A DNA stretch of 40,186 nucleotides from a virus (Duplodnaviria; Heunggongvirae; Uroviricota; Caudoviricetes): IMG/VR virus record IMGVR_UViG_2728369554_000009, positions 1-40,186 of that record. One strand, 5' to 3'. Below the pieces are notes generated by a model. It saw only the letters and a program-made list of their open reading frames with translations, made no database searches and was not told the DNA's origin. Positions 4,966-36,801 of the stretch are shown here, in pieces (position 1 is the stretch's first letter; each line of letters opens with the position of its first letter). The position numbers were made by a program, and so were the translations under genes.

Positions 4966-5042
4966 TTACCGTTGAGGTAATGATTATGCGTATCTGGTTT
5001 GATGTCAATAGATATGAGTTAAAAAAATTACCCATAAGGTAA
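4966..5042. promoter_or_regulatory. Leftward early control region with two TTACC-N5-GGTAA operators (4966-4980 and 5028-5042)
   Basis: Perfect palindromes ttaccgttgaggtaa and ttacccataaggtaa lie just upstream of the leftward operon. Confidence 0.6.
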
Positions 5043-5053
5043 TCTTGCTGGCA

Positions 5054-5078
5054 ATAAAAAAGCCGCCATGAGGCGGCT
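5054..5078 (-). terminator. Intrinsic terminator downstream of the repressor gene
   Basis: Minus-strand hairpin agccgcc/ggcggct followed by a T-run (an A-run at 5055-5060 on the plus strand). Confidence 0.7.
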
Positions 5079-5099: not shown

Positions 5100-5684
5100 T
5101 TATTGTTTGTTTTTTTCGTTCTGGCTGATGACAAATTCAATGTAACTTTCGATCTTTGCCTTCTCTGTTTCGGGTAACAATGCGTAGCGCGAGCGGTCAT
5201 AGTTGATAGTCGCAGGGTCGTGCGGGTGAATCAGTAATTCATAGCCGTGACGCCCGAATGCGGATGCAACATTCTCCAGGGTGGAAATGGAAACGCTGAC
5301 CTCATTGTTTAACAGGCGGCTGATTGTCACCTGGGCGACGCCGGATGCGCGGTGAAGTTTTCCCTGTGTTGAAAGGTAGCGGCTTTCGCTCATCCAGCGT
5401 TCCAGGTTGTGAGCCGCCAGCTGACCAATGTCGCTTGGGCCGACAGGCTGAAAACCTTCCTGAGAAAGCGAGCGATCGATATCAAGCCAGTTACGGGGTT
5501 TATTGGCGGCAGCTTCAATTTTTCGCGCAACCTGGTCGCCGATAACCTTCTTGCCAAGAGCCCAGCGGTTTACCAGATTTGCCTGAGTTCCAAGTTTTTC
5601 TGCCATCCGCGTCTGAACACCATTGAATTCACGGTCGATCAAGTCGTTGAGATTTTGCCTGCGGACGTCCTGGATACTTTTCAT
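5100..5684 (-). CDS. Prophage repressor with two HTH domains and no S24/LexA-like cleavage domain
   Basis: 194 aa. There are two XRE-type HTH segments (TRMAEKLGTQANLVNRWALGKK and LHRASGVAQVTISRLLNN). It is divergent from the Cro-like gene across a three-operator region. No Ala-Gly/Ser-Lys autocleavage module is visible. Confidence 0.75.
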   Translation of the reverse strand: MKSIQDVRRQNLNDLIDREFNGVQTRMAEKLGTQANLVNRWALGKKVIGDQVARKIEAAANKPRNWLDIDRSLSQEGFQPVGPSDIGQLAAHNLERWMSESRYLSTQGKLHRASGVAQVTISRLLNNEVSVSISTLENVASAFGRHGYELLIHPHDPATINYDRSRYALLPETEKAKIESYIEFVISQNEKNKQ

Positions 5685-8093: not shown

Positions 8094-8170
8094 TTACCCA
8101 ATGGGTAACAAAATGTTCTTAGATCTATTGATTTCGTGTCTTATGTGGTTTTTAATTACCTTAGAGGTAA
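8094..8170 (+). promoter_or_regulatory. Promoter region bracketed by two perfect operators (8094-8108 and 8156-8170)
   Basis: Sites are ttacccaatgggtaa and ttaccttagaggtaa. A candidate promoter has -35 TTGATT, a 17-nt spacer and -10 TTTAAT. The second operator covers the Shine-Dalgarno (gagg) of the next gene. Confidence 0.55.
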
Positions 8171-8173
8171 ATC

Positions 8174-8518
8174 ATGAGAAAACAGATACAGGCTCTTGGT
8201 CGACTCAAAACAGGCCAGATGAACAAAACAGAATCTGCGTATTGCCAGCACCTTGAGCTGCGTAAACGTGCAGGGGAAATCGCCTGGTATCGATTCGAGG
8301 GTATCAAGCTGCGGTTAGCTGACAACACGTTCTATACGCCAGATTTCGCTGTGATGCTCGCCACCGGAGAGATGGAACTGCACGAAGTGAAAGGTTTCTG
8401 GACCGACGACGCCAGGGTGAAAACCAAAGTCGCCGCAGATCAGTATCCGTTCCGAATCATCGGGGTAACGGTTAAACCAAAGAAAGCAGGTGGCGGCTGG
8501 AACATCGAAGAGTTCTGA
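8174..8518 (+). CDS. DUF1064-like protein (nuclease or resolvase-like fold)
   Basis: 114 aa. TESAYCQHLELRKRAGEIAWYRFEGIKLRLADNTFYTPDFAV...HEVKG resembles the DUF1064 pattern from memory. Confidence 0.55.
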   Translation: MRKQIQALGRLKTGQMNKTESAYCQHLELRKRAGEIAWYRFEGIKLRLADNTFYTPDFAVMLATGEMELHEVKGFWTDDARVKTKVAADQYPFRIIGVTVKPKKAGGGWNIEEF

Positions 8519-10460: not shown

Positions 10461-10501
10461 GAGTAGATTATGCATGATGAATTTGATGGGTTTTGAATAC
10501 T

Positions 10502-10527
10502 GCCGCCAACTATGGCGGCTTTATTTT
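10502..10527 (+). terminator. Intrinsic terminator between the early-right genes and the terminase genes
   Basis: Hairpin gccgcca-acta-tggcggc followed by tttatttt. Confidence 0.75.
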
Positions 10528-10530
10528 GCA

Positions 10531-10566
10531 TGGTACTATTACCACAACGGTAACTATTACCACGGT
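10531..10566 (+). repeat. Two direct repeats GGTA(A)CTATTACCAC spaced 18 bp apart, just upstream of terS
   Basis: tggtactattaccac / ggtaactattaccac. Each holds the GGTA/TACC half-site words in reversed order. Confidence 0.6.
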
Positions 10567-10570
10567 GGTT

Positions 10571-11167
10571 ATGATGCCTGCTGAACCTAAAACCTATAAA
10601 CGCAAATCAACGCAATTTAAGCCACTAACAGCAATGCAGGAGGCTTATTGCCAGTCATACATCAAAACGCCTGAAAACCAGACTCAGGCAGCGATTAACG
10701 CAGGATTCTCCCCAAATACAGCGGCAGTTAAAGCCAGTGTCATGATGCGCGATGAACGCATTCAAAAACGGATTGCCGAGTTGATGGAGGAGCGCAACAA
10801 ACGAATGCGCGTCAGTGCTGATTACGTTCTCATGCGCCTGGTGGAGATCGACCAGATGGACGTGATCGACATCCTCAACGACGATGGGAGCCTTAAGCCA
10901 ATCCGCGAGTGGCCGAAAATCTGGCGCACTACGCTTAGCGGCTTTGATCTGTCATCGACCATCATGAACATGAACGAGGATTCGATAGAGACAATCCTCA
11001 AAAAAATTAAATGGCCTGACAAGGTGAAGAACCTCGAACTGATTGGTAAGCACGTCGACGTCAAAGCATTCAAAGAACGCCTGGATGTTAATGTGAATGT
11101 GACAATTGCTGATCGCATAGCAGCAGCCAGGAAGCGACTCAAAGAACGTCAGGATGGTAATCAGTGA
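10571..11167 (+). CDS. terS: Terminase small subunit
   Basis: The start was moved to the ATG at 10571 (MMPAEPK). QEAYCQSYIKTPENQTQAAINAGFSPNTAAVKASVMMRDERIQKRI is the Terminase_2-type HTH segment. Confidence 0.75.
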   Translation: MMPAEPKTYKRKSTQFKPLTAMQEAYCQSYIKTPENQTQAAINAGFSPNTAAVKASVMMRDERIQKRIAELMEERNKRMRVSADYVLMRLVEIDQMDVIDILNDDGSLKPIREWPKIWRTTLSGFDLSSTIMNMNEDSIETILKKIKWPDKVKNLELIGKHVDVKAFKERLDVNVNVTIADRIAAARKRLKERQDGNQ

Positions 11168-13141: not shown

Positions 13142-13357
13142 TTACAGCGCAACGTCATCGGAATGGCGTTCTGCTGTAAAAAGGGCGGTGGTCAGAAGAA
13201 GGAGAACTGCCACCGCCAAAGCTACACGCATTGCCTGGTACTGCCGTATCACGGTCCTAACGTGATTGGGTTGTGGTGGCCGGTGCTGATCTCCGGCTTG
13301 AAATATGCTCAGTGTTAGCTGCCACTCTCTCAAGAGGATATGCGTCATGATTTTCAC
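13142..13357 (-). CDS. Possible small membrane peptide. It is 71 aa from the GTG, or 29 aa (MRVALAVAVLLLLTTALFTAERHSDDVAL) from the internal ATG.
   Basis: It has a hydrophobic C-terminal helix and its own downstream terminator. The ribosome-binding sites are weak. Confidence 0.3.
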   Translation of the reverse strand: MKIMTHILLREWQLTLSIFQAGDQHRPPQPNHVRTVIRQYQAMRVALAVAVLLLLTTALFTAERHSDDVAL

Positions 13358-28800: not shown

Positions 28801-28853
28801 ACCTGTTCTGGATTGCGCCACTAATAAACCAAGTGGATCCGGTGATGCGTTAA
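25833..28853 (+). CDS. Large internal virion or ejection protein
   Basis: 1006 aa. It is the last gene of the ejection block and has glycine-rich hydrophobic segments. Confidence 0.6.
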   Translation: MPFYPVSESNNNGFISAGLAIPEPDEQSFDVHPPEGKNPEPRPKEPSLLAAAIRQNNILAGFFRPARQFEPVEGYNPYADKNELHGYEYWGAKFADSRSPEETAWIKQQIDDENEDRRLLSDAGVVGTLASIAAGMDPVTVASMFIPGAQGGALARIGSQIAIGAAGTALSEVVLNNQQITRSWGESAAHVAAGAMMSGVFASAGVALSPSVRAAATREVADALDNMSITSATDRAAASLSDGGSVGAMKIDTATLDDLTPVSGGWVGKAAWKAGSYLTPLTRLMESPSKTVRKTTLELAENNFTLKGNERGIETPVAVETRTRGWQREEAAVVVGNKQAYAKYKADGGDMSFDSFRQQVGNAMRSGDVHANPVVQETAQAMRTVLNRVKVEMQKLGLLPPDEELKALGQASYFPRIYKVGKIISERDKFRRILVDWWSRGNKTLDPEDAEIAADIVINKITGAKVPQDFVSVFSVKAAGSTKERTLNVPDSLIGDYLESDVNYVLQRHIREAAAEIELMRTFGKRTMTERLQLIEDEYDSLLREVPEKIKAKYDESVANLKARYESNGEVVPQGKLDSLMRKYEKELRKEQSRLSKSRANDLRDITALRDRLVGTYGMPDDPSSFFVRAGAFLRDVNFTTKLGGMTVSAIPDLARGVMVNGFRNTMKGYASQISQSPAFKASKEDMLKMGIGLEAVLHSRSRAIGDLVDSSSRTTAVEAGMERITDAFGKLTLMDRFNDINKSMNGMLTSDGILSGAFSARRMAKLGINDNMAARIRSEFEKHGEVIDGWHIGNFDKWDDQYVAGVFQSAVLKDVNNTIITPGIGDTPLWASTPMGRTIFQFKSFTTASYNRALLGGLQEGTAQFYYGTAFQIALGSLVYALKEASKGKNVDWSPEKLVLEGIDRSGILGPLMEYNNMAEKATGGAVGLGALFGTGTQSRYASRGFVGSLFGPSFGLADSIIDVTSGVLNGDAGDRIVHNVRTLIPGNNLFWIAPLINQVDPVMR

Positions 28854-28874
28854 TCAATATTTATTGGAGTTCTT

Positions 28875-29402
28875 TCAATGGCTGTTTATGGCTTCTAAAG
28901 AAGCTTCTGCACTTATCGGCAAAGCAATAGTATCCTTGTTAGATGTGCTATTGCTTTCCAGAACTATGGAAATCCAATCCTCTTGGTTTTCATTAATTGT
29001 GCTGACAGCCATGATAGCATTCAAATCATTTTTATATATTTCTGATCGAATAAGACCTTTCCTGAATAATTTAGTTAAGTTTTCAGCTATCGACATCGCA
29101 CGAATGCTAACTTTACTAAGCTCAATTGCGTCACTACCTGCGACTTTGGCGTGTTGAGAAAGAGCCATCAAAGCTATATGTGAAAATGTTTCTTCTTTTG
29201 AAAAACCGTTACTTAAAGACATGAGTGATACACCAGCTCCGTATGGGGTGAGTTTATATCCTGATACATTCAGTGCATGCTCTACAAAGGTAAGATCATC
29301 AGTTGTAGAAACATGCATATCGTTACTTTTTTGTTTTTTTGCAATAAATAAAAAAACAAAATTAATAATCACGATGCCGACGATGATTAAGAAAACTTCC
29401 AT
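28875..29402 (-). CDS. Membrane-anchored orphan protein (175 aa): N-terminal transmembrane helix plus a ~145-aa soluble domain
   Basis: MEVFLIIVGIVIINFVFLFIAKKQK signal-anchor. GAGGA Shine-Dalgarno. It has its own operator-bearing promoter. The DNA is visibly AT-rich compared with its flanks. Confidence 0.6.
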   Translation of the reverse strand: MEVFLIIVGIVIINFVFLFIAKKQKSNDMHVSTTDDLTFVEHALNVSGYKLTPYGAGVSLMSLSNGFSKEETFSHIALMALSQHAKVAGSDAIELSKVSIRAMSIAENLTKLFRKGLIRSEIYKNDLNAIMAVSTINENQEDWISIVLESNSTSNKDTIALPISAEASLEAINSH

Positions 29403-29422
29403 TGCTTTTCCTCACAATAACA

Positions 29423-29437
29423 TTACCTTAAAGGTAA
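29423..29437. promoter_or_regulatory. Perfect operator 21 bp upstream of the membrane-protein ATG
   Basis: ttaccttaaaggtaa. Confidence 0.55.
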
Positions 29438-29462
29438 TATTTTGTGCTAATGTGATCAAGTG

Positions 29463-29861
29463 TTAAGTGTATACCTCCTGCTGTTCAGTCGTGATTTTAC
29501 CCGGCAACACCTTTTTAGCTTTGCGCGGGTTAACCACATGGCCTTTAGTCCAGTACTCGTAGAGCACATCATCACACTCTTCCTGATACTGGATTACCTT
29601 ATCGCGGATTTCAGGGCGGACTTTGTTTGGACTGATGCTGTTCAACCAAGCTGCCAATTTTCGTAAAGCCATACAAATCATGGCTTGCACCCCTCCGGCA
29701 GAAGGTATGGTGATTTCCACCATACCCTTCGAGAAGCGTTGAGAAATCTTCTTATGTTGAGATTTCCAGTCTAGACCCATTCCCTCAACGATAGGTTTCA
29801 TTGGGGTGTACGGTTCGCCGTTGTGATTGACAACATAAAGTTCTACGCCGTGGAATGGCAC
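29463..29861 (-). CDS. P22 Ant N-terminal-domain-like protein (132 aa, GTG start)
   Basis: PFHGVELYVVNHNGEPYTPMKPIVEGMGLDWKSQHKKI matches the P22_AR N-terminal pattern as I recall it. The long Ant C-terminal part is missing. Confidence 0.6.
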   Translation of the reverse strand: MPFHGVELYVVNHNGEPYTPMKPIVEGMGLDWKSQHKKISQRFSKGMVEITIPSAGGVQAMICMALRKLAAWLNSISPNKVRPEIRDKVIQYQEECDDVLYEYWTKGHVVNPRKAKKVLPGKITTEQQEVYT

Positions 29862-30008: not shown

Positions 30009-30265
30009 TTACCTTTTCGGTAAATTTACATCGCACTCCTCTTGTGCCATAGTAATCGGGCACTGGCAAAATCCAGTGCCGGGATTGGTCTCCCGGATTA
30101 CTACAGAGGCACATATGCCGCATAAGCGGTTTTTTTATGTGTAAAGCGCACCTATTCTATGGTGGGCTGTGTGGGGGCACCGAAAGGTGCGCCGGGTTCC
30201 TTTGTAGCCGGTAAGACCAACTCTGCACAGTTCACCACCATCTGATTGGTCTCAGCGGTGGTGAT
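30009..30265 (+). repeat. Outer inverted repeat, arm A (operator plus structured leader)
   Basis: It is the reverse complement of 32938-33197. The first 95 nt are identical. After that there is patchy identity with paired substitutions. Confidence 0.85.
30024..30136 (+). ncRNA. Terminated leader sRNA, copy A, possibly C4-like
   Basis: An outer stem tagtaatc/gattacta (30050-30057 / 30096-30103) encloses hairpins ggcactgg-caaaat-ccagtgcc and ggga-ttggtc-tccc. Hairpin ccgc-ataa-gcgg plus T7 follows. The loop ttggtct is complementary to agaccaa in the downstream leader. Confidence 0.5.
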
Positions 30266-30290
30266 TAACCTAACTACAAAGGTGATCGCC

Positions 30291-30983
30291 ATGAATACCA
30301 AACCTTCCATCTTTTCCTTTGAGTCATCCTGCCAGATCCGTATGTTCATGATTGACGGAGAACCTTGGTTTGTCACCAAAGATGTGTGCAATGCTTTGAA
30401 TATTGATGTTACACAAGCGAGAAAACTTGATAAAAAAGGCTGGAACAAAAAGGGGCTGTATTCAATACAGACCCCTGGTGGAATACAAGAACTATCCATC
30501 GTTTCAGAATCAGGTCTCTACATCCTTATTCTGCGTTGCAAAGAGGCAATGACTGAGGGAACGAGAGCATTCAGATTTCTTGAATGGGTTACAGGTGAGG
30601 TTCTTCCTCAGATCCGCCGCACCGGAAGTTACATTAAAAACTCGCTCCCGCAGGAAGAACGCATAAAGATGGTTGCCGACCAGGTAGCCAACGCCACGGC
30701 GTCAGCAGTAATGCAGGCGATGAAGATAGAGAACAAAACCTACAGTGCCCCGCTGAAGCCCGGCTACCGCAGCCTGATTCATTCTCCGTCTGGTGTTCTC
30801 GGCCTGACGGAGAACTCACTGCTGATGAATCTGCTGAACCAGTTACAGGAAGACGGGCACGATGTATCGGGCGCGGCGGCGGAGCTGACCACCATGTTCT
30901 GCTACATCGTCGGTGTGAGCAAATGCCTGCGTGATATCCAGACGCACGCGGAATACATCAACGACAAGGCAGGGTTCTTCTGA
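30291..30983 (+). CDS. Antirepressor 1: Bro-N domain plus the shared C-terminal module
   Basis: The start MNTKPSIFSFE lies behind AGGTGA. QIRMFMIDGEPWFVTKDVCNALNI is Bro-N-like. The last ~81 aa are nearly identical to those of the 32255-32911 product. Confidence 0.75.
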   Translation: MNTKPSIFSFESSCQIRMFMIDGEPWFVTKDVCNALNIDVTQARKLDKKGWNKKGLYSIQTPGGIQELSIVSESGLYILILRCKEAMTEGTRAFRFLEWVTGEVLPQIRRTGSYIKNSLPQEERIKMVADQVANATASAVMQAMKIENKTYSAPLKPGYRSLIHSPSGVLGLTENSLLMNLLNQLQEDGHDVSGAAAELTTMFCYIVGVSKCLRDIQTHAEYINDKAGFF

Positions 30984-31033: not shown

Positions 31034-31058
31034 AGGCCGCTTTCGCGGCCTTGTTTTT
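31034..31058 (+). terminator. Intrinsic terminator after antirepressor 1
   Basis: Hairpin aggccgc-tttc-gcggcct followed by tgttttt. Confidence 0.75.
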
Positions 31059-31218
31059 AACGAATGCCACCGCCACCCGGGCGGGAATCCGCAGAACGCC
31101 CACCGCAGCGGGAGCCGTCAGCAGCAGTGTCGCTGTCGTGCTGACAACGACCGGCAAAGGCCTGAGTTGAAGCTACCAGAGACAACAAAACGAACAGTGC
31201 AGCAAATGCTTTTTTCAT
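31057..31218 (-). CDS. Small secreted peptide (53 aa) with an Excalibur-like D-x-D...DG-x-x-C segment
   Basis: The signal peptide MKKAFAALFVLLSLVASTQAFA is followed by GRCQHDSDTAADGSRCGG. A candidate promoter of its own has TTGACG, a 16-17-nt spacer and TATAGA. It is GC-rich, unlike its neighbours. Confidence 0.45.
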   Translation of the reverse strand: MKKAFAALFVLLSLVASTQAFAGRCQHDSDTAADGSRCGGRSADSRPGGGGIR

Positions 31219-31299
31219 TGTGAAATTTCCATCTATAAACCACCTCAATGTGGCGTCAATGAGTGTAGCACTGACTTTTGTTTCGTCCATAAAAAACTA

Positions 31300-31812
31300 C
31301 TATGCAGGCTTTTTGGATTTGTACGAATAATCCCACGGATAAACATTTCTACTAAGTGGAGCTGTATTCGTTCGTTCATGAAATAATTTTGTGAAATTCA
31401 ATACGGAATCCATCCAAACTTTTGCGTTAGCTTTGGTGTGTGCGGGCGGGTCCCAATAAGCTAGTAAGGCTGCATCTCTTATTTCATTGACTGCATATAT
31501 GAGATATGCGTTACTGGTTGGTTTTGGCCTGTAATTTCCTTGTTCATCAATCAATCCATATGACCACTCATCCCAACACTGTTCAGTACATGAGTATGAA
31601 TATGATGCATATTCACCAATATTGACATGAACCTTTCTGAGATGGAAGCCTAATACTTCCTCTGGTCTTTCAAAAAGAGTATCTTTTCCCAGATCAGGAT
31701 GATGACCATGACGCCAGTGTTGTTTAAAAGCATCTTTTAGCGAAATCAGAAAGTCATCAGTTTTAAACTCACCAGTAGGTATAACCTTCCCGCTATACTC
31801 ACTCAAAAACAT
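31300..31812 (-). CDS. YafO-like toxin-family protein (170 aa)
   Basis: LKDAFKQHWRHGHHPDLGKDTLFERPEEVLGFHLRKVHVNIGE and NAYLIYAVNEIRDAALLAYWDPPAH parallel YafO segments (..PDIFGRDALYDD..VAHIHLAN.. and ..AHLVYCQG..AWLLIAIL.PEPH), which I am recalling from memory. AT-rich DNA. Confidence 0.5.
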   Translation of the reverse strand: MFLSEYSGKVIPTGEFKTDDFLISLKDAFKQHWRHGHHPDLGKDTLFERPEEVLGFHLRKVHVNIGEYASYSYSCTEQCWDEWSYGLIDEQGNYRPKPTSNAYLIYAVNEIRDAALLAYWDPPAHTKANAKVWMDSVLNFTKLFHERTNTAPLSRNVYPWDYSYKSKKPA

Positions 31813-32125
31813 CGAATTCCTCTTCCTTCATATGCGTTTCTAATGAGTTAAGCTGGCGGAAAGATATCTCTTTTGATTCTGCAGATGAGAGCTTTTTTAT
31901 CCGCTTTATATTCTTTGTGATAGGAATAGACATTGTATGCACATCAGCGGATGCTCTTGGCTTTGTGCTGATAAAAATATGGCGCAATGCCGCATTTTCA
32001 CTATTGAACGAGCCAATAGCTGATTTACGTGCTACAACCTTACCAGTAAAAATACGACTCTTGCTACGCTTTGCATGAGTTCCGCTTCTTACCGGACCTC
32101 TCATCACGAATCCAAGTTTTGTCAT
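31799..32125 (-). CDS. Upstream partner of the YafO-like gene (108 aa, basic N-terminus, acidic tail EEEFDVFE). Putative antitoxin of an unrecognised family.
   Basis: It overlaps the downstream gene by 14 nt. A promoter with a perfect operator lies 43 bp upstream. Confidence 0.5.
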   Translation of the reverse strand: MTKLGFVMRGPVRSGTHAKRSKSRIFTGKVVARKSAIGSFNSENAALRHIFISTKPRASADVHTMSIPITKNIKRIKKLSSAESKEISFRQLNSLETHMKEEEFDVFE

Positions 32126-32167: not shown

Positions 32168-32182
32168 TTACCTTTAAGGTAA
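32168..32182. promoter_or_regulatory. Perfect operator upstream of the two-gene operon
   Basis: ttacctttaaggtaa. Confidence 0.55.
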
Positions 32183-32229: not shown

Positions 32230-32497
32230 AGGCACATCCCTGTGCCACCGCCCGTCAGAAGAACCCTGCCTTGTCGTTGATGTACTCCGCGTGGGTCTGG
32301 ATATCACGCAGGCATTTGCTCACACCGACGATGTAGCAGAACATGGTGGTCAGCTCCGCCGCCGCGCCCGATACGTCGTGCCCGTCGTCCTGTAACTGGT
32401 TCAGCAGATTCATCAGCAGTGAGTTCTCCGTCAGGCCGAGAACACCAGACGGCGAATGAATCAGGCTGCGGTAGCCGGGCTTCAGTGGGGCGCTGTA
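32230..32497 (-). repeat. Inner inverted repeat, arm B
   Basis: Reverse complement of 30741-31008. Confidence 0.85.
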
Positions 32498-32911
32498 TTC
32501 TTTTTTGTCTTCCAGCTTGATCGCCTCCATTATGGCGGGCATGAAGCCTGACAAGACCTTCTCCACTTTTGTTTCTTGTTGTCTTAAACGTTTCTCGCAT
32601 TCAATGAAGTAGCGTCGCACCTGGCGACCTTTTTCGTTACGCTCGACCATCGCCAGCTCTTTGGCTGTATCAAGGGTGAGGTGGTACTCTTTGCGGTTGT
32701 GGCCGCCTCTACCAGATGTTTGCTTTCCCAAATTGGAAAGCAAAATATAGTCTTGATTTTCAATGAATTCGTATTCTGATATGCGATTTGTAATCCATGC
32801 TGCAAACACCTTTTTAACACCTAAAAAAGCGTGCAGATCGCGGGCATTACAAAGTAGGGCTGTTTCGTTAGATATAGTGCCGTTGAATACGGGGATGAGT
32901 TGAGCGTTCAT
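32255..32911 (-). CDS. Antirepressor 2: AntA-type N-terminal domain plus the shared C-terminal module
   Basis: [37 protein letters not shown]...[29 protein letters not shown] is the AntA/AntB pattern. Confidence 0.75.
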
Positions 32912-33228: not shown

Positions 33229-33486
33229 TTATCTGGTTTGTTTTCGTAATTGTTCGGCACAATAGTCGAGATGTGTTTGCAGATCCTGCATAGACATCTG
33301 TGAGCTGGTGACGTAGTTAATCAGTGCAGTCAGTTCGGCAAGTGGGCCATCGACATTAAATCCATCCTTATCGAGATCCCGGAGTAATTTCATCAAGTGC
33401 GATCCCTCCACCAGTGACCTGACGCCTCCCGGCGTGTGAATCCTTTCGGTAAATCCGTCTTCCAGTGGATAGTGATACTGCTGCAT
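33229..33486 (-). CDS. Mini-antirepressor (85 aa) made only of a diverged copy of the shared C-terminal module
   Basis: The start MQQYHYPLEDG lies behind GGAGAAG. HTPGGVRSLVEGSHLMKLLRDLDKDGFNVDGPLAELTALINYV aligns with [44 protein letters not shown]. The longer 126-aa ORF would include the LexA box. Confidence 0.6.
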   Translation of the reverse strand: MQQYHYPLEDGFTERIHTPGGVRSLVEGSHLMKLLRDLDKDGFNVDGPLAELTALINYVTSSQMSMQDLQTHLDYCAEQLRKQTR

Positions 33487-33507: not shown

Positions 33508-33523
33508 CTGTATATTTATACAG
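33508..33523. promoter_or_regulatory. LexA (SOS) box CTGTATATTTATACAG
   Basis: A perfect CTGT-N8-ACAG with an AT-only spacer, 22 bp upstream of the mini-antirepressor ATG. Confidence 0.8.
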
Positions 33524-33681: not shown

Positions 33682-36600
33682 ATGACGGTCTCAACCGAAG
33701 TTGACCACAACGAATACACCGGTAACGGCGTTACGACATCGTTTCCGTATACTTTTCGAATTTTCAGAAAATCAGACCTGGTTGTTCAGGTGTCTGACCT
33801 GAACGGAAACGTAACAGAATTGGTTCTGGATACCGGTTATACGGTAACTGGGGCGGGCACTTATAGTGGCGGTTCTGTGGTTCTTCCGTCTCCGCTTGCT
33901 ACTGGATGGCGAATTACGATAGATCGTGTGCTTGATGTAGTGCAGGAGACAGACCTTCGCAATCAGGGAAAATTTTTCCCCGAAGTGCATGAAGATGCCT
34001 TTGACTACCTGACGATGCTGATCCAGCAATGTTTTGGGTGGTTCAGACGTGCATTGATGAAACCATCTTTGCTTGCAAAATATTACGATGCAAAGCAAAA
34101 CAAAATTTCTAACCTTGCAGATCCATCATTTGAGCAGGACGCTGTAAATAATCGCTCAATGCGTAATTATGTCGATGCTGCAATCGCCGGGGTTGTTGGT
34201 GGTTTTGGTTGGTTTATTCAGTATGGTTCTGGGGCTGTGTACCGAACGTTCCAGGATAAAATGCGTGATGCTATTAGCCCCAAAGATTTTGGAGCTGTTG
34301 GTGATGGTATAAATGACGATTCCACTGCAATAAGCGCGTGCCTTGAAGCCTCATCTCCAGGTTATAAAATTGACGGATTAGGGCTTACTTTTAAAGTATC
34401 AACTCTTCCGGATGTCAGTCGATTTAAAAATGCTCGTTTTTTATTTGAGAGAATACCGGGCCAGCCTCTTTTTTATGCTTCTGAAGATTTTATCCAGGGA
34501 GAGTTATTTAAAATTACAGATACACCGTGGTACAACGCCTGGACGCAGGATAAAACGTTTGTATATGACAATGTCATCTATGCGCCTTTTATGGCTGGAG
34601 ACCGCCATGGTGTAAATAACCTCCATGTTGCATGGGTTCGCTCAGGAGATGACGGGAAGACCTGGACAACGCCGGAATGGCTTACAGATTTACATGAAAA
34701 CTATCCCACAGTTAACTATCACTGCATGAGTATGGGGGTTGTCAGAAATCGCCTTTTTGCTGTAATTGAGACGCGGACCGTGAGCGGAAATAAACTGCAG
34801 GTTGCAGAGTTGTGGGATCGCCCAATGAGTCGCAGCCTTCGCGTTTATGGTGGTATAACGAAAGCAGCAAATCAGCAAGTCGCTTATATTCGCATTACTG
34901 ATCACGGATTATTTGCTGGTGATTTTGTCAACTTCTCAAACTCTGGTGTTACAGGTGTTACCGGGAATATGACGGTGACTACTGTTATTGATAAAAATAC
35001 TTTTACAGTTACGACGCAAAATACCCAGGATGTGGATCAGAATAACGAGGGTAGATACTGGAGTTTTGGTACATCATTTCACTCGTCACCATGGAGAAAA
35101 ACCAGTCTTGGAACTATTCCTTCTTTTGTTGACGGAAGCACTCCTGTTACTGAGATTCACAGTTTTGCGACGATTAGCGATAACAGTTTTGCTGTTGGCT
35201 ACCATAATGGTGATATTGGTCCACGCGAGCTTGGGATACTCTATTTCTCTGATGCTTTCGGTTCTCCTGGTAGCTTTATTCGCAGACGCATACCTGCAGA
35301 ATATGAGGCGAATGCATCTGAGCCATGTGTAAAATATTATGATGGCATTCTGTATCTGACGACCAGGGGGACATTAAGTACTCAACCCGGTAGTTCATTG
35401 CACAGAAGCTCTGATTTAGGTACATCATGGAATTCTCTTCGCTTCCCAAATAATGTTCATCACTCAAACCTTCCTTTTGCCAAAGTTGGCGATGAGCTGA
35501 TTATTTTTGGCAGTGAGCGCGCATTTGGTGAGTGGGAAGGAGGAGAACCTGATAACCGTTATGCAGGAAATTATCCAAGAACATTTATGACCAGAGTTAA
35601 CGTCAATGAGTGGAGTCTGGATAATGTAGAGTGGGTTAATGTTACTGATCAGATTTATCAGGGCGGAATAGTTAACTCTGCGGTTGGTGTTGGTTCAGTT
35701 TGTATCAAAGACAACTGGCTGTACTACATTTTCGGTGGGGAAGACTTTCTAAACCCATGGAGCATAGGGGATAACAACAGAAAATATCCTTATGTTCACG
35801 ATGGTCACCCGGCTGATTTATATTGTTTCAGGGTGAAAATCAAACAGGAAGAATTTGTTTCAAGGGATTTTGTCTACGGAGCCACTCCTAACAGAACGCT
35901 TCCTACTTTTATGTCGACGTCAGGCGTGAGGACGGTTCCTGTACCCGTTGATTTCACAGATGATGTTGCCGTCCAGTCACTGACTGTCCATGCAGGTACA
36001 TCAGGACAAGTTCGCGCGGAAGTCAAACTTGAGGGTAATTACGCCATTATTGCGAAGAAAGTACCGTCTGATGATGTTACCGCTCAGAGATTAATCGTTA
36101 GCGGCGGTGAAACAACGTCTTCAGCAGATGGTGCAATGATAACGTTGCATGGTTCCGGAAGCAGTACTCCACGTCGCGCGGTATATAACGCACTCGAACA
36201 TCTTTTTGAGAACGGAGATGTTAAACCTTATCTTGATAATGTAAATGCTCTTGGTGGTCCGGGAAACAGGTTCTCGACAGTTTATCTTGGCTCCAATCCT
36301 GTGGTTACCAGTGACGGAACATTAAAGACAGAGCCGGTCTCTCCTGACGAAGCATTGCTGGATGCCTGGGGTGACGTCAGGTATATCGCTTATAAATGGC
36401 TGAACGCTGTCGCTATAAAGGGGGAAGAAGGGGCGAGGATACATCATGGTGTAATCGCGCAGCAACTTCGTGATGTTCTTATTTCTCACGGACTCATGGA
36501 AGAAGAAAGCACAACATGCCGCTATGCCTTTCTTTGCTATGACGATTATCCCGCAGTATATGATGACGTCATTACTGGCCAAAGGGAAATGCCGCTGACT

Positions 36601-36801
36601 GATAATGAAGGGAGCATCATTGTTGATGAGGATGATAATCCAGTGATGGTAATGGAAGACATCATTGAGCGCGTTGAAATAACGCCAGCAGGATCTAGAT
36701 GGGGGGTCAGACCTGATCTCTTATTCTATATCGAGGCAGCATGGCAGCGCAGAGAAATGGATAAGATAAAAGAGCGGATTCAGTCTCTGGAAGAACGTTA
36801 A
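33682..36801 (+). CDS. Tailspike: conserved N-terminal particle-binding domain, Asp-box (sialidase-like) central domain, and a C-terminal intramolecular chaperone (peptidase S74-type) domain
   Basis: 1039 aa. Asp-boxes are SGDDGKTW and SSDLGTSW. The GAVGDGINDDSTAI motif is present. The C-terminal VVTSDGTLKTE...HHGVIAQQL matches the S-D-x-x-x-K autocleavage region, with Ser877 at 36310-36312. Confidence 0.85.
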   Translation: MTVSTEVDHNEYTGNGVTTSFPYTFRIFRKSDLVVQVSDLNGNVTELVLDTGYTVTGAGTYSGGSVVLPSPLATGWRITIDRVLDVVQETDLRNQGKFFPEVHEDAFDYLTMLIQQCFGWFRRALMKPSLLAKYYDAKQNKISNLADPSFEQDAVNNRSMRNYVDAAIAGVVGGFGWFIQYGSGAVYRTFQDKMRDAISPKDFGAVGDGINDDSTAISACLEASSPGYKIDGLGLTFKVSTLPDVSRFKNARFLFERIPGQPLFYASEDFIQGELFKITDTPWYNAWTQDKTFVYDNVIYAPFMAGDRHGVNNLHVAWVRSGDDGKTWTTPEWLTDLHENYPTVNYHCMSMGVVRNRLFAVIETRTVSGNKLQVAELWDRPMSRSLRVYGGITKAANQQVAYIRITDHGLFAGDFVNFSNSGVTGVTGNMTVTTVIDKNTFTVTTQNTQDVDQNNEGRYWSFGTSFHSSPWRKTSLGTIPSFVDGSTPVTEIHSFATISDNSFAVGYHNGDIGPRELGILYFSDAFGSPGSFIRRRIPAEYEANASEPCVKYYDGILYLTTRGTLSTQPGSSLHRSSDLGTSWNSLRFPNNVHHSNLPFAKVGDELIIFGSERAFGEWEGGEPDNRYAGNYPRTFMTRVNVNEWSLDNVEWVNVTDQIYQGGIVNSAVGVGSVCIKDNWLYYIFGGEDFLNPWSIGDNNRKYPYVHDGHPADLYCFRVKIKQEEFVSRDFVYGATPNRTLPTFMSTSGVRTVPVPVDFTDDVAVQSLTVHAGTSGQVRAEVKLEGNYAIIAKKVPSDDVTAQRLIVSGGETTSSADGAMITLHGSGSSTPRRAVYNALEHLFENGDVKPYLDNVNALGGPGNRFSTVYLGSNPVVTSDGTLKTEPVSPDEALLDAWGDVRYIAYKWLNAVAIKGEEGARIHHGVIAQQLRDVLISHGLMEEESTTCRYAFLCYDDYPAVYDDVITGQREMPLTDNEGSIIVDEDDNPVMVMEDIIERVEITPAGSRWGVRPDLLFYIEAAWQRREMDKIKERIQSLEER

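Follow-up and report, generated by a model that had tools for sequence, protein, structure and literature searches.

The prophage in IMG/VR record IMGVR_UViG_2728369554_000009, positions 1–40,186 of which are the window analysed here, carries next to the last of its ejection-protein (core-protein) genes a small gene for a protein of 175 amino acids (aa). The best overall explanation, which we put forward tentatively, is that it is an accessory gene gated by the phage repressor Rep, that its product is tethered to the inner membrane, and that it serves in the exclusion of other phages or in an activity directed at ejection proteins during lytic growth. The window corresponds to a prophage located between guaA and yfgI, and the phage is an epsilon15/phiV10-like (Uetakevirus-type), K1-specific Escherichia coli prophage. 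Its structural genes are of the epsilon15/phiV10 type (gp10 staple, Bbp16 cement, T7 gp14-like core protein, soluble lytic transglycosylase (SLT) core protein and endosialidase tailspike). The region under study is identical in the prophages of five complete E. coli genomes, and the 175-aa gene itself is present in 6 of 5426 complete E. coli genomes.

An earlier note on this DNA had described the gene as extending to position 29437; this interval includes the operator discussed below, and the open reading frame (ORF) itself reaches only to 29402. The gene is real, as indicated by its deep family of homologues and by a ratio of nonsynonymous to synonymous polymorphism (pN/pS) of 0.27 against a 95.5%-identical allele (two natural alleles), which corresponds to purifying selection. 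Its composition is foreign, as the earlier note had stated: the GC content is 35.4% (29.5% at third codon positions, GC3), compared with 48.2% for the window. The only hydrophobic 19-residue stretch of the protein falls in residues 1–21 and is followed by KKQK, and AlphaFold2 (AF2) models a helix for residues 2–24, in agreement with the single N-terminal transmembrane (TM) helix proposed earlier. The positive-inside rule, together with soluble homologues and homologues fused to winged helix-turn-helix (wHTH)-like domains, predicts an N-out/C-in topology. The proposed cytoplasmic location of the remaining ∼145 residues is upheld by the same two groups of relatives, since the former have no signal peptide and the latter carry a DNA-binding domain. 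We are thus highly confident that the protein is a bitopic inner-membrane protein with a two-residue periplasmic N-terminus, one TM helix and an all-alpha cytoplasmic domain of ∼145 residues. In the AF2 model this domain comprises helices 29–46, 53–64, 69–88, 92–114, 120–134, 140–150 and 165–173, and a small beta-bridge between residues 49–51 and 160–162. The model of the soluble domain is confident (predicted local distance difference test, pLDDT, of 95 from an 85-sequence alignment; only 55 from a 6-sequence alignment), but it has no recognisable fold relative and gave no informative structural match, and a search of PDB sequences with the 175-aa protein returned a chance match only. Conservation falls on small or hydrophobic residues, and there is no catalytic motif; binding of another protein at the inner membrane face is therefore the most likely activity of the domain.

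The control elements of the gene are strongly conserved. A promoter of the form TTGAT(C/T)-N17-TACCTT was found in nine loci and in the metagenomic locus L012, whose homologue is 39% identical at the protein level, and its −10 element lies within the left half of a perfect TTACC-N5-GGTAA operator (TTACCTTAAAGGTAA, 29423–29437), 20 nt upstream of the ATG. The overlap of the −10 region with this site and the Shine-Dalgarno sequence GAGGA, 6 nt before the ATG, had both been seen in the earlier note. The 43 nt that span the operator, the Shine-Dalgarno sequence and the ATG are invariant in nine loci. A generic promoter scan matched TTAACA-16-CAAAAT at 29466–29439, and promoter-like matches in the region were no commoner than in shuffled sequences (6 versus 4.3). 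This candidate was downgraded, as it is not conserved in L012, and the assignment of the promoter is upheld by comparative conservation despite the weak result of the scan.

The notion of operator control stands in that the promoter is overlapped by the operator, but the site, of which the earlier note saw only one copy, is not single. The window contains 12 perfect and three one-mismatch copies of TTACC-N5-GGTAA, i.e. 15 against 0.8 expected, and all 15 are intergenic (starts at 4966, 5028, 5740, 5788, 6125, 8094, 8156, 10539, 10557, 13804, 29423, 30009, 32168, 33183 and 33563). The rep gene is flanked by the sites at 4966 and 5028 on one side and 5740 and 5788 on the other, as OL and OR; a PL-like promoter immediately downstream of rep (TTGACA-16-TAATCA, with TTACC directly after it) has two sites, and the interval that separates rep from the cro-like gene has two or three. 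Further sites are found before the DUF1064 gene, terS and the portal region, before ant/tailspike, and ahead of every transcription unit in the variable region. The phages phiV10 and SPC32H show the same enrichment (14 sites versus 0.63 expected and 18 versus 0.58 expected, respectively), and SPC32H rep is flanked by three on either side. Rep of the window is 99% identical to the repressors of phiV10 and TL-2011b and homologous to Rep of Salmonella phage SPC32H (PDB 5D50; E-value 1.4e-41). This homology, an Ant protein 88% identical to that of SPC32H and a perfect LexA box upstream of ant indicate that the phage uses an SPC32H-type switch, in which non-cleavable Rep tetramers on palindromic sites are dismantled by SOS-controlled Ant (PMC9638917). 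From this we infer that TTACC-N5-GGTAA is the phage-wide immunity operator of Rep, probably shared with the Cro-like protein, and that Ant would be the inducer that relieves Rep repression of the ORF, near which itself no LexA box is present. Such a distribution of sites suggests that Rep represses units throughout the genome directly and not by way of a cascade.

An immunity operator that covers the −10 element and the transcription start predicts repression in a stable lysogen and expression upon induction or early in infection, and we consider such Rep-gated early expression of the 175-aa gene probable on the strength of the sequence. Expression in lysogens, implied by the earlier note, runs counter to this prediction. 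In the ancestral form of the promoter cassette (MS196-1, H10407, TL-2011b and L012) a distal operator lies ∼91–93 bp upstream of the proximal one (in L012 it is perfect and 91 bp away). The 21-nt gap between the gene and the convergent core-protein gene (28853–28875), a neighbourhood correctly described before, contains no detectable terminator-like hairpin, nor was one detected nearby, so late transcription should run antisense through the ORF.

The arrangement of the operator elsewhere in the window has further features. It precedes nearly every transcription unit (early-left, early-right, replication/nin, terS, portal, ant/tailspike and the accessory units). The operators at 10539 and 10557 are located inside the annotated 5′ end of terS (TTG start at 10493; region 10493–10575), and ATGATG directly follows the second of them (∼10571–10576); phiV10 has the same arrangement (sites 87 and 105), and the true terS start may lie downstream of both operators. 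At the DUF1064 gene (8156–8176), the right half of the operator, GAGGTAA, lies 3 nt before the ATG and appears to double as the Shine-Dalgarno sequence, so that predicted repressor binding would cover both promoter and ribosome-binding site.

The cassette itself is more widespread than the gene. A ∼77-bp segment (29390–29466) comprising promoter, operator, Shine-Dalgarno sequence and the codons MEVF has matches in 192 of the 5426 complete E. coli genomes (just six of these possess the ORF) and also occurs at 5001–5077 of locus L002 and ∼7950–8030 of L007. The gene downstream of the cassette was checked in H10407, TL-2011b, L026 and L029. In enterotoxigenic E. coli (ETEC) H10407 and in TL-2011b, the gene driven by the cassette encodes an unrelated protein of 242 aa (phrog_6762) that is composed of a TM helix, a linker and four CxxC motifs. 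Since L026 and L029 have both the 175-aa and the 242-aa gene, the two are not alleles of one slot.

The claim that the protein is an orphan did not survive. It matches phrog_21690 over its full length (E-value 7.5e-104, positions 1–175 of 175), the sole PHROG matched by all 85 aligned homologues, and 109 homologous protein clusters (at 50% identity) were found at E-values of 1e-3 or below. The conserved core of the family spans approximately residues 35–160, and conservation extends down to ∼25% identity. The N-terminal TM anchor is restricted to ∼20 of 110 clusters; the rest consist of fusions or of proteins free in the cytoplasm, including ∼26 soluble homologues with MFGFFKKK-type N-termini and ∼22 clusters fused to wHTH-like N-terminal domains, one of which matches MarR. 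Anchored members are confined to phage and satellite DNA, and free and wHTH-fused members occur in ordinary chromosomal contexts. Neither the protein nor its 85 homologues match Pfam or NCBIfam, and a tblastn search of 50,697 phage records gave no match, SPC32H, phiV10 and epsilon15 being without the gene. An alignment-based search for related loci across 185,579 species genomes yielded just one locus, and a profile search of a 5.8-billion-sequence set added little. The protein is thus a member of a small, uncharacterised domain family that has no Pfam, NCBIfam or PADLOC model. The hydrophobic-basic N-terminus resembling MFGFFKKK recurs in P0026, P0037, P0040, P0074, P0080, P0082, P0091, P0092, P0100, P0111 and others, and may be a peripheral membrane-binding motif; if so, the whole family would work at the inner membrane face.

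The position of the anchored members bears on function. The 93%-identical allele is always 21 nt from a 1007-aa core-protein gene, with an upstream ant region that varies freely. Three diverged homologues, like the gene in the window, converge on the last core-protein gene: P0010 (39% identical to the window protein) directly adjoins a core-protein homologue of 57% identity, P0014 (38%) neighbours one of 49% identity, and P0043 (30%) is next to a 74%-identical homologue of phiV10 p20, a different type of core protein. Four of the six TM-anchored members examined thereby occupy the slot that follows the final ejection-protein gene, and P0008 and P0009 lie beside a P4-like sid/delta/psu remnant. 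The slot is also that of P22 sieA, which lies 22 nt from gene 16 (gap at 13313–13336 of P22) in convergent orientation and has its own promoter, with the ant region and tailspike beyond. Because diverged homologues occupy a slot beside ejection-protein genes, as sieA does, exclusion or an ejection-protein-directed activity is the most likely role, and as a claim about function during lytic growth we rate it, from these analogies, as possible rather than probable.

In the proposed mechanism, Rep, with Cro on the same sites, would keep the gene off in a stable lysogen. Once LexA-controlled Ant inactivates Rep, or in the first minutes of an infection, the gene would be transcribed, and its expression would later be damped by Cro and by late transcripts of the core-protein operon, which, with no terminator in between, would run antisense through the gene. 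The tethered domain would bind another protein at the inner membrane face, and would either interfere with the DNA entry or establishment of a second phage during lytic growth or handle ejection proteins from the cytoplasmic side. Several observations weigh against this explanation. P0018 (34% identity) is found just after a Rep-like gene and its terminator instead of beside a core-protein gene. The conserved slot may be a mere permissive insertion site, as it adjoins two types of core protein and in other phages holds unrelated genes (in TL-2011b the TM-anchored gp39, in phiV10 a membrane protein of 46 aa). The lone operator may be weakly bound and repression leaky, given that the Rep tetramer uses paired sites and the partner in the window is 586 bp away. 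The exclusion proteins known from short-tailed phages, SieA among them, span the membrane several times and are expressed by the prophage, and it is not obvious how a cytoplasmic domain would block a periplasmic or membrane conduit. Finally, PADLOC-DB v2 has no family for the protein, and its 85 homologues gave isolated matches only, at E-values above 0.004.

With respect to function, we rank exclusion or an ejection-protein-directed activity during lytic growth first, followed by lysogen-expressed superinfection exclusion or abortive infection, which departs from it chiefly in the timing of expression, then early host takeover, a regulatory tether and a functionless passenger. The first of the alternatives, which is unlikely in our judgement, is a SieA-like moron that is expressed in the lysogen and excludes or aborts superinfecting phages, with the operator exerting partial or conditional control. 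Atypical composition and an own promoter, which characterise lysogen-expressed morons, are both present, and no terminator-like hairpin of its own was detected. A gene just downstream of a repressor gene occupies a position comparable to that of lambda rexAB, and P0018 in locus L031 is placed in this way, with a terminator in between. A lysogen-expressed moron would also fit the position and geometry shared with P22 sieA, the presence of homologues in the same slot and the loss of the nearby partner site from the window, and sieA of P22 is itself transcribed weakly in lysogens, with an increase during infection (PMC10883804). The promoter argues otherwise: its −10 element is inside a perfect immunity operator, in the same geometry as the PL-like promoter and the promoter at 8156, which are necessarily silent in a lysogen, and the two-operator cassette is conserved at 39% protein identity. 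Homology to SieA or to PADLOC models is also lacking.

The same promoter geometry, that of a Rep-controlled early gene, would suit early host takeover, in which the derepressed, tethered domain binds a host protein of the inner membrane (e.g. in division, envelope or transport). Repressor-controlled genes of the kil/dicB type and the membrane-anchored gp56 of SPO1 offer comparisons for such a role. The domain resembles a binding module with no catalytic motif, and its chromosomal, non-phage homologues suggest a cellular partner. Nevertheless, takeover would leave the repeated linkage to ejection-protein genes unexplained, the protein has no similarity to known division or host-takeover proteins, and the rarity of the gene among E. 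coli genomes means that it is dispensable; we place this alternative somewhat below the lysogen-expressed moron. A regulatory tether that sequesters Rep, a nearby antirepressor or a host factor at the membrane and so tunes the lysis–lysogeny decision is improbable. It would account for the location of the gene in or at the end of an antirepressor-rich region, directly downstream of an antirepressor gene in several loci, and for the fusion of the domain to DNA-binding domains, but the domain has no detectable similarity to Ant, Rep or anti-sigma domains, and the gene keeps its place on the core-protein side however much the upstream ant region varies. Decaying or functionless cargo behind a duplicated promoter cassette, to which the truncated neighbouring ant genes, the inverted repeats indicative of rearrangement and the use of the same cassette by the unrelated 242-aa gene might point, is very improbable, as the gene is intact in every locus examined and under purifying selection, its slot and promoter are conserved across homologues of 30–39% identity, and the family is conserved deeply enough to yield a confident AF2 model from its alignment.

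Returning to the preferred explanation of a Rep-gated exclusion or ejection-protein factor, the kind of gene is already known: temperate podoviruses carry accessory genes in a hot spot between the ejection-protein genes and the tailspike. What distinguishes this one is a domain without a recognisable fold relative and its control by the immunity operator. A bolder version, for which we see only a small chance, is that the gene is the first of a new kind of ejection-gene-linked factors, in which a tethered domain, turned on once the immunity repressor is lost, acts on the cytoplasmic end of the podovirus DNA-delivery conduit. Such a factor might exclude secondary infections during lytic growth or shield the membrane of the producing cell from its own freshly synthesised, membrane-active core proteins, and the free and wHTH-fused chromosomal relatives would be cellular versions of its binding module. 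If exclusion is indeed the function, the gene would represent a second, unrelated solution to the problem solved by P22 SieA, at an equivalent locus in a different podovirus lineage, one that acts from the cytoplasmic side and is not expressed in the lysogen, its timing being set by the immunity repressor, and the gap between ejection-protein genes and tailspike would be a general hunting place for entry-blocking genes of short-tailed temperate phages. A protein annotated as hypothetical now has a confident structural model and a 109-cluster family behind it, and a concrete, testable regulatory prediction results, in phages that place one 15-bp operator before nearly every transcription unit, accessory genes included. 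The features on which this account is based are collected in Table 1.

Table 1. Features of the prophage, with positions in the window
Feature	Position	Strand	Remarks
Coding sequence, 175 aa, ATG start	28875..29402	-	WP_000451652.1 (RefSeq, E. coli); phrog_21690 member
Single N-terminal TM helix, codons 2–24	29331..29399	-	AF2 helix 2–24; KKQK after helix; N-terminus ME-
Cytoplasmic all-alpha domain, codons 29–173	28884..29318	-	AF2 pLDDT 95, predicted template modelling score (pTM) 0.81
Shine-Dalgarno sequence GAGGA	29409..29413	-	6 nt upstream of ATG; invariant in 9 loci
Perfect 17-bp palindrome ATTACCTTTAAGGTAAT	29422..29438	.	Contains operator 29423–29437; putative Rep (probably also Cro-like) site
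Sigma-70-type promoter candidate TTGATC (29459–29454)-N17-TACCTT (29436–29431)	29431..29459	-	Conserved in 10 loci
Second operator TTACCTTTTCGGTAA	30009..30023	.	586 bp from proximal operator; displaced by truncated ant fragment
Last internal-virion (core/ejection) protein gene, 1006 aa	25833..28853	+	Convergent with 175-aa ORF, 21 nt away
P22_AR_N antirepressor fragment, truncated, 132 aa	29463..29861	-	Directly upstream of ORF, co-directional; RefSeq pseudogene
Rep, 194 aa, two helix-turn-helix motifs, no peptidase domain	5100..5684	-	Homology to PDB 5D50
Small antirepressor Ant, 85 aa, beside tailspike	33229..33486	-	88% identical to SPC32H Ant
Perfect LexA box CTGTATATTTATACAG upstream of ant	33508..33523	.	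Ties derepression of Rep regulon to SOS response

The region between the ORF and the tailspike contains several antirepressor genes or fragments with P22_AR_N, Bro-N and AntA domains (29463–29861, minus strand; 30246–30983, plus strand; 32255–32911, minus strand). The C-terminal module of the two longer ones resembles SPC32H Ant, two genes of the antirepressor region are labelled pseudogenes in RefSeq, and a stretch of the nearby ant DNA shares 96% identity with CUS-3, a P22-like K1 phage. Inverted repeats of 59–257 bp (30728–30984/32254–32510, 30004–30103/33103–33202 and 30207–30265/32938–32996) point to past inversions or duplications in this region. A YafO-like toxin gene (31300–31812, minus strand; phrog_1651; Pfam E-value 7e-4, below the curated cutoff) overlaps an upstream gene for a 108-aa protein (31799–32125, minus strand; phrog_5933) in an arrangement that resembles a toxin–antitoxin pair; the pair is AT-rich (39–40% GC) and has its own Rep-type operator upstream at 32168. 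A 77-aa ORF (31057–31290, minus strand) encodes a signal-peptide-like segment, MKKAFAALFVLLSLVASTQAFAG, and a Gly/Arg-rich tail, and matches phrog_14503, annotated as a moron-type membrane-associated protein. RefSeq lists the product of the tailspike gene (33682–36801, plus strand) as an endosialidase, a depolymerase of the K1 capsule; the gene is combined here with an epsilon15/phiV10-type virion module. In L031 (6216–7525; also L032 and L033), the P0018 gene lies ahead of ORF6N ant and RecT genes, and a variant palindrome, TTACT-N5-AGTAA, follows the rep stop codon of the L031 locus.

When the window is set beside known systems, its regulatory circuit corresponds to the SPC32H/epsilon15-type switch of Rep, Ant and LexA, with a common Rep homologue, Ant and LexA box and with TTACC-N5-GGTAA sites both flanking rep and scattered over the genome. 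Unlike in SPC32H, phiV10 and epsilon15, the operator in the window is predicted to control an additional accessory gene, and compared with the SPC32H type the window has accumulated several more antirepressor genes or fragments (Bro-N, AntA and P22_AR_N), each accompanied by its own copy of the operator. Phrog_21690 and the wider family share the full-length hidden Markov model (HMM) match and the 35–160 core with the 175-aa protein, but the wider family is mostly unanchored and found in chromosomal contexts, and all of its members are functionally uncharacterised. The 242-aa TM and zinc-ribbon protein has the same promoter, operator, Shine-Dalgarno sequence, MEVF codons and N-terminal TM anchor as the 175-aa gene, and gp39 of TL-2011b (phrog_8033) is likewise TM-anchored and occupies the same slot after the core-protein gene, but the soluble domains of both are unrelated to that of the 175-aa protein; homology to gp39 was considered and rejected. 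T4 Imm and proteins of the lambda Kil type are early accessory proteins under repressor or programme control. The 175-aa protein resembles them in its predicted early expression after infection or derepression and in being small, membrane-associated and dispensable, but is related to them neither in sequence nor in structure.

The closest comparison is with SieA, superinfection exclusion protein A of the Lederbergvirus P22, to whose class the earlier note had likened the protein. The position agrees: both genes are convergent with the last ejection-protein gene across a gap of ∼21–22 nt and have their own promoter. The proteins are also similar in size (164 aa for SieA and 175 aa here), and an inner-membrane location has been shown for SieA and is predicted for the 175-aa protein. 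Homology was not supported when the P22-type SieA was compared (BLASTP E-value 0.21 over seven residues; hhalign probability 0.1% with the 85-sequence profile); two other sequence types of SieA exist (PMC10883804). SieA has three predicted TM segments and acts on the ejection proteins gp16 and gp20 (PMC10883804), whereas the window protein has one TM segment and consists almost wholly of a cytoplasmic globular domain; SieA is expressed from the prophage, whereas in the window the immunity operator overlies the promoter. The gene thus corresponds to sieA in position but does not belong to the SieA family.

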